From a virus (taxonomy: Duplodnaviria; Heunggongvirae; Uroviricota; Caudoviricetes): DNA of 5,534 nucleotides. The position numbers were made by a program, and so were the translations under genes. The first letter of the stretch is position 1; every line of letters starts with the position of its first letter. The stretch lies in the IMG/VR virus record IMGVR_UViG_2690316273_000004, positions 1 through 5,534 of that record; one strand, written 5' to 3'. Below are positions 1 to 5,534 of the stretch, in pieces. The notes under the pieces were generated by a model, which was given only the letters and a program-made list of their open reading frames with translations, did not search any database and was not told the DNA's origin.

Positions 1-26
1 ATGACAAGATGTGTATCTACCTTAAC

Positions 27-728
27 TTAATGATTTTGATAAAAATCATTAGGGGATTCATCAGTGTTTAGCATGCTCGCGATACGGTATTCAGGCGGAG
101 TACCTTCATCATCGTCTTTTTGCTGATCGCGCATTTCCTGCACCAGGCGAATACACGTATCCCTGGCGTTCTCCAGCATAAGGAGATGAGAAAGAGACTT
201 TTCAAGAAGAGTGGTTTCCAGAACATCGGCCCCGGACCGACGCAACATAGCGCGCGCGGCCTTCCGCGCTTCAACGTTATCTATCAGGTAATCGCCAGCT
301 TCGAATTCAAAGCGTTCACCATCATCATCCAGGGTGTCGCGTTCCAGGCGATCACGTAAGGTCCGGTGGGCGCGGGTGATCACGTCATGATCATCTGAAC
401 GATCATTTATGCGCTTATTTTGGCGCTTCGCATTCTCGACTGCGGCACTGACAACGGCATTAACTCTCTGTTTTTCCGCTATTTCAGCCGCAATATGATC
501 ACCTGCATGTTGATCATTAGAGTGATCAATGATCATGCTTTTTAGTGGCTTCCTGACTGGCTTATTTGGCTTGCGGCTGTCCGCAGTCCTAGTGTCTTCT
601 TTGAAGGCACGGAGATAACGACGTGCGGTATTAGGGTTAAGATTAAACTCGGCGGCATACTGTGCGATGGTGTAACCACCATCTCGCGCCAGGCGAGCAA
701 AATTCTTCTTGTGATCGTCCCAGGTCAC
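27..728 (-). CDS. Phage-associated DNA-binding protein with N-terminal helix-turn-helix (233 aa); function unresolved, possibly a regulator or small-terminase-like protein
   Basis: Long minus-strand ORF from the track. GTG start at 728 preceded by AAAGGAAG about 5 nt upstream (seen in sequence). N-terminus [22 protein letters not shown] has an HTH-like pattern, followed by a charged, acidic and Arg-rich region. Product is a guess. Confidence 0.55.
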
Positions 729-785
729 TTATGCTTCCTTTCGTAAAAACTCTTTTTGACGCGAGGGTAACGAAAGTCACATGTC

Positions 786-803
786 AAAAGGCCCGGAACG
801 GGC
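786..803 (-). terminator. Candidate weak intrinsic terminator: 5-bp GC stem (GCCCG/CGGGC, loop of 3) followed on the minus transcript by CUUUUG
   Basis: Hairpin gcccggaacgggc at 791-803 lies 11 nt beyond the stop of the 814-1266 gene. Stem is short and the U-run is only 4 nt. Confidence 0.2.
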
Positions 804-813
804 AAGCAATCAA

Positions 814-1266
814 TCAGATACGTGCGGATGTGGCATTACCGTAATGACGGTGCTGACGGGCCACCTTATTGAAAAGTTGACGCGCCATTACCCAAGGCTG
901 GTGCTCCCGGCGTTCCTTTTCGTCCTGCGTCATATAGAGTTCGTTCTGGAGTTTTTCATCAAACCGGCGCGGCGCGCGGCTGCGGCGAAAGAATTCAGGA
1001 TTCAAAGAGTGGATCTGAAATCTACGTGGGCGTGTACTGTCATCAATCAAAACAGACGAATACTTAGACACAGCGATAGCCTTTAAGCGCAGATAAACGT
1101 CGCGCTTATCGACATCCAGATGCGGGTATTCCTTTTCAAGGATTGCTGCGAGTTCTTTCGCTGATAGAAGAGACTTAGTGCGGATCATGTAATCCGCAAT
1201 CTCATACGATGTTATTCGTGAGTGATTTATTTCCATGAAGTGGCGTCCCTGCCAGTTAAGTAACAT
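814..1266 (-). CDS. Hypothetical phage protein (150 aa), Arg-rich, no Cys
   Basis: Minus-strand ORF from the track. ATG at 1266 preceded by AGGTGA 4 nt upstream. An internal ATG 10 codons in (MEINHS) is an alternative start. No recognisable motif. Confidence 0.5.
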   Translation of the reverse strand: MLLNWQGRHFMEINHSRITSYEIADYMIRTKSLLSAKELAAILEKEYPHLDVDKRDVYLRLKAIAVSKYSSVLIDDSTRPRRFQIHSLNPEFFRRSRAPRRFDEKLQNELYMTQDEKERREHQPWVMARQLFNKVARQHRHYGNATSARI

Positions 1267-1311
1267 CCTGTCACCTACTGATTAGCCCATGTCAACTAAT
1301 CAACGTGGAAT

Positions 1312-1339
1312 ATAATACCCTCTATTAAAGAAATAGCAA
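1312..1339 (-). promoter_or_regulatory. Candidate sigma70 promoter for the 814-1266 gene: -35 TTGCTA (1334-1339), 16-bp spacer, -10 TATTAT (1312-1317), read on the minus strand
   Basis: Hexamers read directly from the reverse complement of the 1267-1354 intergenic region. Purely a sequence-pattern call. Confidence 0.2.
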
Positions 1340-1354
1340 TACATTAGAGCAATT

Positions 1355-2398
1355 TTATCTAACGCTCGACGAGTGACTTGTGATAGCGCCGACTCCAAGC
1401 GCGTAATCAAAGAACAATCGTTGATGCATCGCCAGCCTACCGTGCGTCTTCTCCCAATTATCGCGGTCACGCTCAATATCACGCTGGCATGACTGGCACA
1501 GAGGAATTGCGTAAATGTCATGCGCGCATAATCGACTATGACGAACGATATAAGGCGTAATGTGAGCGCCAGCTCCCGCCGCTCCACACCCACAGCATGG
1601 ACGGGAAGCAACAAAGTCCATGTACTCAGGTAATTTTAGCGATTGCAGTTTTGGTATTTTGAAATGCGCCATGCCAGGGTCGGAGTCAACATCCACAGAG
1701 CATACTTTTGCACGCATCGGCGCGGCGCGTTCTTCCATCATCTGAACATATGCTGTAGCGCGATCGTCATACGGGCGAATATCCGCCTCTTTCAGAGGTC
1801 CGCTATCCTGCGTTGCGGCTTTCATCTTATTTATTGATATACGGCAAACTTCTTCCGGCATCAGGTGCATCATGTTGCGCATGAAAGCCCACCAGCACAG
1901 TTCCTGAATACTTAAATCATGGCCATCTGAAAGCCCCATTTCCTGACGGGCGACATCCAGTATCCAGTTAACGCGATTATTATGCAGCGTTTCTTTCAGC
2001 TCATTAAAACCACGCATCCGGTAATGGTTATCGTGATGCCAGCACAACAACACCGCGCTATTGTCTCGTTCTGCGTGGACAATATGGTTGTCACACCAGC
2101 TACGATCTGCGGCCTGGCATTGCCCCTCTTTCCTGCGCAACCACGCCACCAGCGAGTCAATTCCACCAATACGGCGAAACAGTTCATCGCTGTTAAAAAA
2201 CGGCTGCAACGCCTCATTTGTTGCCATAGTTTGCTCGGAAACAACGAGGCCGTCGTCCATGTGCTCGATTAACTCACGCGGCACCGGCTCCATAATAAAT
2301 TTACGGCCAGCCTCCACCAGCTTTCTGACTTCCTGATCCACTTTGAATGTGGCGACGCCAAGCTCTTTTTGTACAAAGGGAGTAATTACGGCTTTCAC
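1355..2398 (-). CDS. DUF968/YdfU-like prophage protein (347 aa) with two Cys/His clusters, putative zinc-binding HNH-like domains
   Basis: Minus-strand ORF from the track. GTG start at 2398 with GAAAGG Shine-Dalgarno. Cys/His clusters [17 protein letters not shown]...LCWHHDNH and CCGCG...H...LCAHD...CQSC. Size and motif pattern match my recollection of E. coli Qin-prophage YdfU (DUF968); not verified by search. Confidence 0.6.
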
Positions 2399-2425
2399 AT
2401 CACACCTTTCATCACTGATTGGGCT

Positions 2426-2626
2426 TTATCTGCTGCCCGGCATTCTCTGTTTAAGCACAACCATTTCCTGACGGCATAACACAGCAATAGCGGTCCTGGC
2501 ACCAATTTGCTTACCAACCAGGTATTGCTTTACCTCGCGGCGACTCACGCCATCAAGAAGCATCTTTAACGCTTCACGGGACAATTTGTTGTATTTACAT
2601 GCCATTAATCTACTCCGCGGAACCAT
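2426..2626 (-). CDS. Small hypothetical protein (66 aa from ATG 2626, or 59 aa from ATG 2605), translationally coupled to the doc 3' end
   Basis: Minus-strand ORF from the track. Its start overlaps the doc stop (2610-2612) by 17 nt, or lies 4 nt downstream of it if ATG 2605 is used. Its stop (2426-2428) is in frame with and 27 nt upstream of the DUF968 start. Basic, possibly DNA-binding; no family recognised. Confidence 0.4.
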
Positions 2627-2990
2627 ACAATCTACGTAACGTGTCGGCGACAGAAGATACAGATATCTCTCCGGTCGCAGCCCCTACGGTAAGGTCTGCC
2701 AGTTCAGGTGAATCAAATACCTGCACCCCGTTACGGCGTAGAAATAACAGCGCACTGTTTAGCGCGGTACGCTTATTGGCATCATTGAATATATGCCCTC
2801 TCGCTGTAGCCACCAGGTAGGTGGCGGAGACTTCGAAAAGGTCGGTGATCTCTTCGTAGGCAACTCTGGCCTGAACTCTCCCGATAATGGCCTCTGCCCT
2901 ACCCGGATCTGACATTCCCGGCAGGCCGCCGTAGCGGTTTATATTCGCATCATGAAGCGCAATAAGTTCTTCCGGTGATATATGCCTCAT
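2610..2990 (-). CDS. doc: Doc toxin (death on curing), Fic/Doc-family kinase, 126 aa
   Basis: Translation [16 protein letters not shown]...[30 protein letters not shown]...LRRLYGSAE matches phage P1 Doc as I recall it. Fic motif HIFNDANKR is intact at 2769-2795. ATG at 2988-2990 overlaps the phd stop by 1 nt. Confidence 0.93.
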
Positions 2991-3211
2991 TATCGGTTAA
3001 CCAGTTCCTTGTTGGTGGAGTCCAGGGTGTCAAACAGGGATGCAAATTCAGCATCCAGCGCCGCTTTTTTGTAGGCTTCGAAAGTAGCCTTGCTGACAAT
3101 TACTGCTGGCTCACGGCCTCTGCGGGTGATTTCAACCTCTTCCCCGGCTTCAACATTGTTGAGCACTTCAGAAAGGTTGCCACGCGCGGTACGGAAGTTA
3201 ATGGATTGCAT
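2990..3211 (-). CDS. phd: Phd antitoxin (prevent host death), 73 aa
   Basis: Translation from ATG 3211, [73 protein letters not shown], matches P1 Phd as I recall it. The track ORF begins 2 codons earlier at a GTG (3217); ATG 3211 with GAGGTG upstream is preferred. Confidence 0.93.
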
Positions 3212-3250
3212 AAACACCTCGTGTACTCGTTATGTGTACACAATTATAAA
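3212..3250 (-). promoter_or_regulatory. phd-doc promoter/operator: -10 TATAAT (3243-3248, minus strand) followed by perfect 10-bp palindrome TGTGTACACA (3233-3242), a second GTGTAC half-site (3221-3226) and GAGGTG Shine-Dalgarno
   Basis: Palindromes and -10 read directly from the sequence. Two palindromic Phd/Doc-binding operator sites overlapping the promoter is the known architecture of P1 phd-doc autoregulation. No good -35 was found. Confidence 0.5.
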
Positions 3251-3321
3251 CTTCACAAGCATAAAGCACCAGCACTTTGCAGCTTAAATCACCGGACAAT
3301 CGTCAAACTCCCCACTTCGGG

Positions 3322-3340
3322 CATCATTGATGAAATGATG
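3322..3340. repeat. Perfect 7-bp inverted repeat catcatt-gatga-aatgatg
   Basis: Seen directly. Lies 16 nt beyond the stop of the 3356-3820 gene and about 75 nt upstream of the phd -10. AT-rich stem and no U-run, so not a canonical terminator; possible protein-binding site. Confidence 0.4.
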
Positions 3341-3355
3341 TGGTCACACCAAACT

Positions 3356-3820
3356 TTAATCTTCAAGGTCTGCTTCTGATACCACTGTATAACCCAGAAA
3401 TATTTTAATCTCATCCCACAATCCCATGATCTTGCCTTCATACTCTGATGGTTCTCTTACAATTACTGAATCTGGGGGAGAGTGAGCCTCTAATTCGGTT
3501 ATGATCTCATGGCAAAGATTATGTTTGTAATATTGTTTTAGTTGCTCTCGAATAGGTTTTGGCGCACTTTCAATAGTTTCTTTTGCGGCATTTAGTGAAA
3601 GAATTATATTACTTGCGTCATTAACATCCCAGTCTGATCCAGCTTTTCCTGTTGCTATTTTATTTGCCCTATCAGCAAAGTTTATCAATGCTTCACTATA
3701 AAATTTTTCCTTATCGAATAATCCAAGCTTTTTACTTGTGCGCAAACTAATAAAAGCAGCTATTGCTGACCCAAATGCCGCAATAGCTGATGCCCAATCG
3801 GGATTGATATGAAGAAACAT
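3356..3820 (-). CDS. Hypothetical membrane-anchored protein (154 aa), AT-rich gene
   Basis: Minus-strand ORF from the track. N-terminal hydrophobic segment WASAIAAFGSAIAAFISL followed by a basic stretch, consistent with a signal-anchor, then a hydrophilic domain. Clearly AT-rich, so likely horizontally acquired. Confidence 0.55.
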   Translation of the reverse strand: MFLHINPDWASAIAAFGSAIAAFISLRTSKKLGLFDKEKFYSEALINFADRANKIATGKAGSDWDVNDASNIILSLNAAKETIESAPKPIREQLKQYYKHNLCHEIITELEAHSPPDSVIVREPSEYEGKIMGLWDEIKIFLGYTVVSEADLED

Positions 3821-3858
3821 GCTATCTCTACCTAATGCCAGATCTTTAACCTAGAAAT

Positions 3859-3886
3859 ATTGTATCAGTAGTTATGGCTTTGCCAC
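3859..3886 (-). promoter_or_regulatory. Candidate promoter for the 3356-3820 gene: -35 GTGGCA (3881-3886), 16-bp spacer, -10 TACAAT (3859-3864), read on the minus strand
   Basis: Hexamers read from the reverse complement of the 84-nt intergenic region 3821-3904. The -35 is weak. Confidence 0.2.
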
Positions 3887-3904
3887 CAGTAATGCGATTT
3901 TTTC

Positions 3905-4564
3905 CTAGTTGTCATTGCCCCCTACCAACGACAATAAAGCCCTGGCCATCTTATGAACCAACAGTGCATCAATAATGCCAAGCGTATGCCCCGGCTTAAT
4001 GTTTAATGCTGCCTCAAGATGCCCCCTTTCCAGACCGCTTTTCTCGGCTTGTTTATGATGATATGGCGTAATAACGTCGCCCAAAACACGGCTAATTCTT
4101 TCTCGTAATTGCTGGGTGCCAGCACACTTGATCGCTGTATCGTGGAGACGGTTAACCAGTTCGCGATAAACATGCGGCTTAATGCGGATACGTTCACCGG
4201 TGACGCCCTTTCCTGGCGCTGGCACCGAACTATCCGGAATATCCGGATAGTTGCCAGCCTCGTAAGCTACCCGCAGCCAGTGCATGAATGTTTCAGTGGA
4301 CACACAACCACAGTCCACATCGATTTTTCCGCGTTGCTGTTCCAGCCACTGCTCAAAATTCAATCTACACGTATTACTTTCATGTTGCTCTTTTTGTCTC
4401 AAGGCCAGCACCTGTTGGGCCAGTTCCAGAACGATACCGGGTGACGCTAACCTCTCAAATTCCAATAAATAGTTTGCGTCAGGATGACAAGTAGCCTCGC
4501 CTGCAAAAAATACCAATTGCTGTAAGTATGCTGTCGTTAGAGTAGTCATTTCTTTTTGCGCCAT
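3905..4564 (-). CDS. Hypothetical soluble protein (219 aa) containing several Cys/His residues, unknown function
   Basis: Minus-strand ORF from the track, about 50% GC. ATG 4564 lies inside the 3' end of the upstream membrane-protein gene (19-nt overlap). Contains CHPD, TCRLN and DCGC. No Walker A or other catalytic motif recognised. Confidence 0.6.
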   Translation of the reverse strand: MAQKEMTTLTTAYLQQLVFFAGEATCHPDANYLLEFERLASPGIVLELAQQVLALRQKEQHESNTCRLNFEQWLEQQRGKIDVDCGCVSTETFMHWLRVAYEAGNYPDIPDSSVPAPGKGVTGERIRIKPHVYRELVNRLHDTAIKCAGTQQLRERISRVLGDVITPYHHKQAEKSGLERGHLEAALNIKPGHTLGIIDALLVHKMARALLSLVGGNDN

Positions 4565-4920
4565 TTCTTTTCACATTCCTTAGTCCATTTTTCAATGTTC
4601 ATTTTGGCAATATCAGTCATTCCATCACCTAAGAAATACTTTTTCCGGTATGTCTTGCACTTAAACCACACTACAACAGCCACCAGCCAGAAAATAAAAG
4701 GCCATACAGCAATACCAACGACAGCCGCGATAAAGCCCAATAGCCATAAATGAAGCTCTCCAACTTCTGTTTCCGGCAATATTCTTAAAGAATTAAACAG
4801 CAGGCTGAACGAATGGTCGTATGCATTGGCAGTATAAGACATGCAATCCATATAATTAAAGTCATAGCCTGCGGCTGCCGCCCATAATGGGCGGTCAAGA
4901 AAATGTTTTAGTGTCATCAT
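4546..4920 (-). CDS. Hypothetical membrane protein (124 aa): N-terminal soluble region, about 30-residue hydrophobic core, polybasic C-terminal tail
   Basis: Minus-strand ORF from the track. Hydrophobic core LHLWLLGFIAAVVGIAVWPFIFWLVAVVVWF (one long helix or a hairpin). C-terminus ends KKWRKKK. Start is 6 nt after the upstream gene stop; no strong Shine-Dalgarno, so probably coupled. Confidence 0.55.
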   Translation of the reverse strand: MMTLKHFLDRPLWAAAAGYDFNYMDCMSYTANAYDHSFSLLFNSLRILPETEVGELHLWLLGFIAAVVGIAVWPFIFWLVAVVVWFKCKTYRKKYFLGDGMTDIAKMNIEKWTKECEKKWRKKK

Positions 4921-4926
4921 ATAAAT

Positions 4927-5220
4927 TTAAGGTTCAGACCAGTTATCTTCAATAGCAATGCTTAATCTTTGTAGCCATTCTGCTAATTTCAGCATTGCTT
5001 CTCTTTCGCTTAAACCACGAGGAAAATCATCAAGCGAAATTGTTGGCTTGAATCCACCGTAATTATCCATTTCAACTGTCAGATTTTGTTCCAGCAAGGT
5101 ATTTCTTACGCGGCTATTGTGCCGGAGCAAATATACTGAGCGTGATTTATTGGTTTTGTGGTCTAGCTTATATTCGGTAAGTATCATCTGGCTTTTGCCA
5201 TGACTATTACCTCTCCACAT
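4927..5220 (-). CDS. Hypothetical small soluble protein (97 aa), AT-rich gene
   Basis: The track ORF runs 4927-5316 from a TTG. I prefer ATG 5220 (MWRGNSHGKSQMILTEYK...) because it is preceded by GAGGT at 5-nt spacing and the N-terminal extension overlaps a better small ORF in another frame. Confidence 0.5.
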   Translation of the reverse strand: MWRGNSHGKSQMILTEYKLDHKTNKSRSVYLLRHNSRVRNTLLEQNLTVEMDNYGGFKPTISLDDFPRGLSEREAMLKLAEWLQRLSIAIEDNWSEP

Positions 5221-5227
5221 ACTTACC

Positions 5228-5350
5228 TCACTTAATAAAACAACTCCATGCGTAGTTGATGATTTTTTCCCACGCAATATAAATCTGCACTCCGGCAGTA
5301 AAACCAAAGCCAACAATTGCTGAAAAAATCAAAACATTTACTTTTGACAT
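5228..5350 (-). CDS. Candidate small hydrophobic peptide (40 aa, single predicted transmembrane helix); not in the ORF track
   Basis: Hand-translated from the reverse complement: MSKVNVLIFSAIVGFGFTAGVQIYIAWEKIINYAWSCFIK. ATG at 5348-5350, TGA at 5228-5230. Its stop overlaps the GAGGT Shine-Dalgarno of the next gene. Short ORFs are error-prone calls. Confidence 0.3.
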   Translation of the reverse strand: MSKVNVLIFSAIVGFGFTAGVQIYIAWEKIINYAWSCFIK

Positions 5351-5534
5351 TATAAATTTTCTCTCGGTGTCGTAGGTGATAGCACCATAATTGATAATTT
5401 AGTGAGTTAGCAGTTCCATTTTTTTGATGATTTCCGCATGAGCATCATCGTTATCAACACTTAGCTCTGAGAGATCCCCTCATAATTTCCCCAAAACGTA
5501 ACCATGTGTGAATAGATTTTGAGTAAGCAGGGTT

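Follow-up and report, generated by a model that had tools for sequence, protein, structure and literature searches.

The window analysed here is the whole stretch of 5,534 nucleotides that forms positions 1 to 5,534 of the IMG/VR virus record IMGVR_UViG_2690316273_000004 (Caudoviricetes). All of its genes are located on the minus strand, and it carries a bacteriophage P1 backbone. The backbone part comprises pacA (27-728), lpa (814-1266, Pfam BPP1_LPA), pdcB (1355-2398, Pfam DUF968), pdcA, which stands between pdcB and doc in the gene list, doc (2610-2990, Pfam Fic/DOC) and phd (2990-3217, Pfam PhdYeFM). Upstream of phd follows a block of genes that is absent from P1 itself. It consists of a gene for a 154-aa protein of unknown function with a PHROG match (3356-3820, phrog_1779), a PmgT-like mosaic gene of 219 aa known from the ORF listing and the PHROG scan (3905-4564), the gene of a 124-aa protein (4546-4920, phrog_2638), which is the next operon gene after a 97-aa gene (4927-5220, phrog_1258), and the 40-aa gene (5228-5350) that is the subject of this report. 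Megablast recovered the same block in P1-like phage-plasmids, among them SJ46, vB_EcoM-813R1 and RCS47, and it can be equated with the region pmgT to humD that is known as variable region 8 of P1-like phage-plasmids (PMC9603915).

Between pmgV and phd, P1 carries humD, lxr, hot and upfM-O, in place of which the window (3217-3905) holds the single 154-aa gene; through this replacement the element is devoid of the SOS-linked humD/lxr module. The 124-aa protein contains a long hydrophobic stretch in which two transmembrane segments can be recognized by eye, its gene overlaps the following one by 19 nt, and its only Pfam match, to CptA-toxin, is sub-threshold (E 0.08). The middle part of the 219-aa protein is found again in another sequence (L073), at the N-terminal end of a DUF551 protein.

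At its upper end the window closes with 68 bp of an IS10 terminus (5467-5534, ISVsa5 family), whose transposase gene, on the minus strand, is oriented towards the peptide gene. The element has cut the 77-aa phrog_3876 gene, of which a 3' remnant of the last approximately 22 codons with the TAA stop is left (5399-5466, minus strand). The 9 bp beside the IS10 end (5458-5466) read CACTTAGCT and resemble an IS10 target hotspot, the consensus of which is NGCTNAGCN. The insertion is probably polar on the 40-aa, 97-aa, 124-aa and PmgT-like genes, and since it parts the peptide gene from its normal promoter, expression in this copy is probably lowered.

The 40-codon gene and its family

The ORF MSKVNVLIFSAIVGFGFTAGVQIYIAWEKIINYAWSCFIK (5228-5350, minus strand) is present in the ORF listing, is a member of phrog_5525 and encodes a predicted single-pass membrane peptide. 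It is as first described with respect to its ATG start, its 40 codons and its single hydrophobic helix. The best Kyte-Doolittle mean over 19 residues is 1.83 (residues 7-25; 1.69-1.85 over four family representatives), and AlphaFold2, run on ten family sequences, predicts for the single chain one continuous helix from residue 2 to 39 (pLDDT 86). A crude sum on the Hessa scale amounts to about +2 kcal/mol, by which the hydrophobicity of the transmembrane segment is marginal. The charge bias of the peptide is ambiguous as to topology.

A weak SD-like GAGAG (5361-5365, minus strand), read from the sequence, precedes the ATG (5350-5348) by 10 nt. At the other end, the junction TGAGGTAAGTATG (5218-5230, minus strand) joins the gene to its neighbour: the TGA stop (5230-5228) overlaps GAGG (5229-5226), the SD of the 97-aa gene, and the ATG of that gene (5220-5218) follows 5 nt further on. 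The peptide stop thus sits within the SD of the next gene, in agreement with the coupling that the original prediction had proposed, and the two genes appear closely coupled as judged from this arrangement. The intergenic gaps around the ORF are 48 nt on the upstream and 7 nt on the downstream side.

The peptide matches the phrog_5525 profile over its entire length (residues 1-40 against positions 1-40 of 40, E 1.1e-24). PHROG already lists this family, with no assigned function, among the phage proteins, and J46_0090 of SJ46 (AMR60008.1), which is annotated there, is 100% identical to the protein of the window. A literature search by accession numbers, PHROG identifier and peptide strings found no paper on phrog_5525 members. 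Exhaustive HMMER searches over 1.84 billion representative proteins recovered two subfamilies only, which characterizes the family as narrow and enterobacterial; one further match, a repeat protein, was judged spurious. Members of both subfamilies are 40 aa long and share approximately 50% identity.

Subfamily 2, with the peptide MNKCNALLYAMVIGFGLAAGIRVYIAWESLINLAWSAIRG, is annotated by PGAP as WP_001030561.1 (40 aa) and matches phrog_5525 with E 7e-30. It is found in epsilon15-like (Uetakevirus) phages and in prophages, with Escherichia, Klebsiella, Citrobacter and Pseudescherichia represented. Its SD, GGAGGTGA, is strong and near-perfect and lies 4-5 nt before the ATG, which overlaps the upstream stop (TAATG or TGATG); its last codons share 8 nt with the start of the gene downstream. 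Among 5,426 complete genomes of E. coli, this prophage form is present in about 195 and the P1-like form in about 204, so that both together place the peptide gene in roughly 7% of them.

A pattern scan of IMG/VR delivered 128 relatives, 80 of which were kept for a count of codons. The ORF has exactly 40 codons in 77 of these 80 loci (one of the 77 starts with CTG); of the remaining three, two have lost the stop and reach 47 aa, and the third is unresolved. The subfamilies differ at 52 of the 120 nucleotides, and the similarity of the DNA is confined to the ORF, falling to background at both of its borders. Frame 0 is the only frame open in both subfamilies, the other five being interrupted by stops in one or both of the sequences compared. 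Synonymous sites are near saturation (pS 0.66-0.73 versus pN of about 0.34, dN/dS 0.16-0.30). When the 52 substitutions were placed at random, the observed BLOSUM62 score of 122 was reached in 0 of 20,000 trials (randomised mean 37, sd 15). Conservation of the frame in relatives had been suggested as a check together with the original prediction; the frame is indeed kept, under purifying selection between the subfamilies. Within the P1-like loci, the 40-aa gene has a pN/pS of 0.59, a value from 63 IMG/VR loci with few sites and high variance, versus 0.14, 0.14 and 0.28 for the 77-aa, 97-aa and 124-aa neighbours in the same loci; here the constraint on the 40-aa gene is clearly looser than on its neighbours. 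Overall, the pattern of sequence conservation allows the 40-aa ORF to be regarded with high confidence as a real protein-coding gene.

In an alignment of 32 members the positions K3, L7, G14, F15, G16, A19, G20, Y24, I25, W27, I31, N32 and W35 are invariant or nearly so, and position 22 is polar throughout (Q, R or H). On a helical wheel of the family, L7, G14, I25 and N32 fall on one face and G16, G20, W27 and I31 on a second. The conservation moment of the helix is only 0.02-0.08, with conserved positions all round it. Conserved positions on at least two faces point to contacts with two or more adjacent helices, whether of a homo-oligomer or inside a partner protein.

Operon context and exchange of cassettes

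The original prediction placed the peptide gene at the head of its cluster. This position is owed to the window, which starts inside the IS10 copy that cuts the 77-aa gene; elsewhere about ten co-oriented genes precede the ORF. In intact relatives it lies about 5 kb into an operon controlled by a C1 operator. In p2RM9154-C1, where the peptide gene is about the tenth in the co-oriented array, the array starts with two hypothetical genes, two Ead/Ea22-like genes, several small ORFs and a DUF551 gene, followed by the 77-aa, 40-aa, 97-aa, 124-aa, PmgT-like and PmgV genes. In the intact relative L007 a C1 operator with one mismatch is found directly after the pap homologue, where the array begins; it is the counterpart of P1 OpmgT/Op88. 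No convincing minus-strand terminator was detected in L007 between this operator and the 40-aa ORF. As the array starts at a C1 operator, the peptide gene should be expressed once C1 repression is lifted.

A scan for promoters and terminators detected none belonging to the 40-aa ORF itself on the minus strand near it. On the plus strand a promoter-like site (5195-5223, TTGCCA-17-CATACT) lies antisense to the peptide ORF; one such site was found where 3.4 are expected by chance, so that it is probably meaningless.

In the epsilon15-like prophages the gene is the last of the early operon: the replication genes precede it, and a gp49-like regulator and the terminase genes come directly after it. 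Downstream of subfamily 2 there is usually the gene of the 112-aa gp49-like 'transcriptional regulator' (phrog_536) and then that of the small terminase subunit. A tie to phrog_536 was rejected, as that family occurs in 149 phage records versus six for the peptide (a seventh tblastn match to the peptide, in an Acutalibacteraceae phage with E 0.7, is due to chance), and as the slot before the regulator is occupied by the peptide in phiv142-3, by gp48 in epsilon15 and by an ASCH cassette in O157 typing phage 9 (L098, 927-1208). On the upstream side subfamily 2 is accompanied by DUF551 proteins with many different N-termini, by Lar in Citrobacter and by others. A tie to DUF551 was likewise rejected, because Citrobacter has Lar, P. 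vulneris has another gene and the P1-like loci have a 77-aa gene in between.

The P1-like backbone presents the same picture. Homology between the window and P1 variants of the MH422554 type ends at 5226, just 5' of the start of the 97-aa gene, and in MH422554 an ASCH-domain gene, MANLQLAVKGEYFDAMIRGEKTEEYR..., fills the slot before the 97-aa gene (L002, 4298-4601). ASCH and 40-aa cassettes thus alternate in the same slot across two unrelated backbones. Plasmid records contain the 97-aa gene in 368 cases versus 225 for the peptide. A fixed system with the 97-aa and 124-aa neighbours was rejected, since their co-occurrence with the peptide is not constant, a P1 variant is free of the cassette and the neighbours of subfamily 2 are different ones. 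With neighbours differing between the backbones, the peptide gene is best described as an independent accessory cassette.

A Klebsiella pneumoniae phage-plasmid (NZ_CP146603.1; L099, 1037-1171) carries, two genes upstream of its homologue of the 97-aa gene, a hydrophobic 44-aa ORF, MNSELFNYSLKTLQVLNVVADLVLSVALFGFGYGLLNLLEWWLA, with a GFG motif. It was rejected as a family member (hhalign probability of 1% against the 40-aa family) and may represent an analogous small membrane cassette.

Possible roles of the peptide

Scans of the peptide and four neighbours with Pfam, NCBIfam and PADLOC yielded nothing above threshold; the best NCBIfam match to the peptide, CydH, has an E of 0.15 and is far below the cut-off. 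PDB sequences, searched with a profile, contained no match at E<=10, and an Rfam scan of positions 4800-5534 gave none at E<=1.

We consider it rather probable that this is a real gene for a single-helix peptide of the inner membrane, carried as an accessory cassette, expressed in the lytic phase and packing on membrane partners. The most likely role, as inferred from the sequence features of the family, is that of a small single-pass inner-membrane protein which packs against such partners. The cassette belongs to the long arrays of small, co-oriented and translationally coupled 'ea-type' genes (Ead/Ea22, DUF551, Lar, ASCH and others) of temperate enterobacterial phages, and the peptide would be made during lytic development and not in the lysogen. 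It would insert into the inner membrane and pack there by means of G14, F15, G16, A19, G20, Y24, I25, W27, I31, N32 and W35 on two faces of its helix, against other helices, for which either the same peptide or a membrane protein of the host is a candidate. Such packing would modulate a function of the host membrane to the benefit of the phage. Expression in the lytic phase, taken together with the lack of a constant phage-encoded partner, makes a small inner-membrane modulator of host function the best guess.

Among known proteins, phrog_5525 with J46_0090 and WP_001030561.1 is the family itself and shows no difference. The small single-pass membrane regulators of bacteria, of the type of AcrZ, MgrB, MgtS, SgrT and CydX/CydH, have in common with the peptide a length of 30-50 aa, one transmembrane helix and conserved small and aromatic residues of the packing type. 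They are the favoured functional analogy for the peptide, an analogy that extends to form only: there is no sequence relationship to AcrZ/CydH-type regulators, and the 40-aa gene is phage-borne and of the lytic phase.

A narrower version, which we rate as rather unlikely, would make the peptide a stand-alone early-lytic effector that inhibits one specific host inner-membrane protein. Candidate targets would be, for instance, a membrane-bound effector of abortive infection or defence, a protease, or a transporter that competing phages make use of.

Levivirus single-gene lysis peptides (such as LysM) and superinfection-exclusion proteins (such as T4 Imm/Sp and HK97 gp15) are short transmembrane peptides directed against a host membrane target, and their way of acting alone fits a cassette without a constant phage partner. 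No homology was detected between the 40-aa peptide and the LysM, T4 Imm/Sp or HK97 gp15 types, and different from these it is encoded in temperate dsDNA phages, in an accessory array and not in a lysis or immunity locus.

The original prediction saw in the peptide a possible lethal or triggering component. Under this view it would act as a toxin on the membrane, or would serve as trigger or effector in a toxin-antitoxin or defence-like cluster that also includes the 97-aa and 124-aa genes beside phd-doc; we regard this as unlikely. In size and in having a single hydrophobic helix the peptide is similar to Hok, Ldr and TisB among the type I toxins, and more generally the type I toxins (Hok/Gef, Ldr, TisB, Ibs, ShoB) are, like this peptide, small hydrophobic helical peptides on mobile elements. 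Tight coupling to the next gene, the membrane protein of 124 aa with its sub-threshold CptA-toxin match that follows, and repression of the operon in the lysogen, by which a toxic product would be tolerable, point in the same direction. However, no toxin or defence model of Pfam, NCBIfam or PADLOC matches the ORF, which unlike the type I genes lies inside a polycistronic operon with gaps of 48 nt and 7 nt and has neither a promoter or terminator of its own nor an antisense RNA or a family match; Rfam revealed no antitoxin RNA, and the antisense site is below chance expectation. Nor is any neighbour constant: the 97-aa and 124-aa genes are also encountered where the peptide is missing, subfamily 2 stands beside a regulator, DUF551 or Lar, and the ORF is one among about a dozen cassettes of an ea-type array.

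A homo-oligomeric pore or viroporin-like assembly, or a modulator of holin or antiholin type, that alters the membrane potential or the timing of lysis is given an equally low probability. The small residues on two faces (G14 with position 18, G16 with G20), the conserved polar position 22 (Q, R, H) and N32 would fit a ring in which each helix touches the one on either side, and expression in the lytic phase would suit such a function. However, the C-terminus is not highly charged, and no endolysin, holin or spanin gene adjoins the peptide gene in either backbone. It does not lie in a lysis cassette; around it are accessory genes of the ea type, a regulator and the terminase genes.

It is very unlikely that the ORF is only a translated spacer, or leader, which brings ribosomes to the downstream gene and yields a functionless peptide. 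Both subfamilies preserve an overlap of the stop with the SD or the start of the gene downstream, and the relaxed constraint within the P1-like loci (pN/pS 0.59) is in line with such a spacer; against it, amino acid sequence and exact length are conserved across subfamilies with unrelated downstream genes, and the 13 positions invariant or nearly so are retained at near saturation of the synonymous sites. Toxin, pore and pure translational leader are all considered less likely than the modulator of host membrane function.

The downstream gene and its annotation

The 97-aa gene (4927-5220, minus strand), whose product starts with MWRG, is delimited by profile, PGAP and homologues. The protein reads as soluble, with a beta-sheet plus helix in its AlphaFold2 model (pLDDT 87); a Foldseek search of this model against the PDB gave no match at E<=0.001, and so the model says nothing on function. 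The ORF listing contains in the same frame a longer, TTG-initiated ORF of 129 aa (4927-5316, minus strand), and translation from this TTG had been named with the original prediction as one finding that would speak against the peptide gene.

That the true product is this 129-aa protein from TTG 5316, and the 40-aa ORF a chance overlapping frame, is hardly credible: every P1-like haplotype keeps 30-39 codons of the extended frame free of stops and 129- or 140-aa forms are predicted by the JGI, ENA and Logan gene callers, but the protein of the window aligns from MWRG to a phrog_1258 profile of 97 positions, the PGAP call for the downstream gene is 294 nt, homologues with 62-69% identity (Klebsiella, Citrobacter, Salmonella, Erwinia, Pantoea) are 97 aa long and start with MWRG, the cassette-free P1 variant MH422554 has an in-frame stop 4 codons 5' of the MWRG ATG, subfamily 2 has stops in the extension frame, and the SD GAGG lies 5 nt 5' of the ATG at 5220.

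From the evidence for 97 aa and MWRG, the 129-aa form is an over-extension that is seen only where the peptide gene lies upstream. The original prediction called the 40-aa gene unannotated, which is correct for P1-like plasmids in RefSeq/PLSDB (no feature under the match among the 30 listed of 225) and does not extend to J46_0090 and WP_001030561.1. In those plasmid records the gene is without annotation because it is masked by the over-extended frame. The artefact is systematic: wherever the 40-aa cassette lies upstream, the predictions of 129 or 140 aa by JGI, ENA and Logan hide the small gene. The practical value of the present analysis is one of annotation, the gene having been missed in the RefSeq/PLSDB records of P1-like plasmids that were examined.

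For the biology of these phages, the family adds one more uncharacterised small membrane protein to the fast-swapping accessory arrays that also carry anti-restriction genes (Lar). With 40 aa the peptide is short enough for easy synthesis and for genetic testing. If a host membrane protein is targeted, it would be a neat minimal effector, and if inhibition of a specific inner-membrane protein should be true, it would represent a new, peptide-sized factor of counter-defence or host takeover, swapped in the slots of Lar-type anti-restriction and ASCH cassettes.
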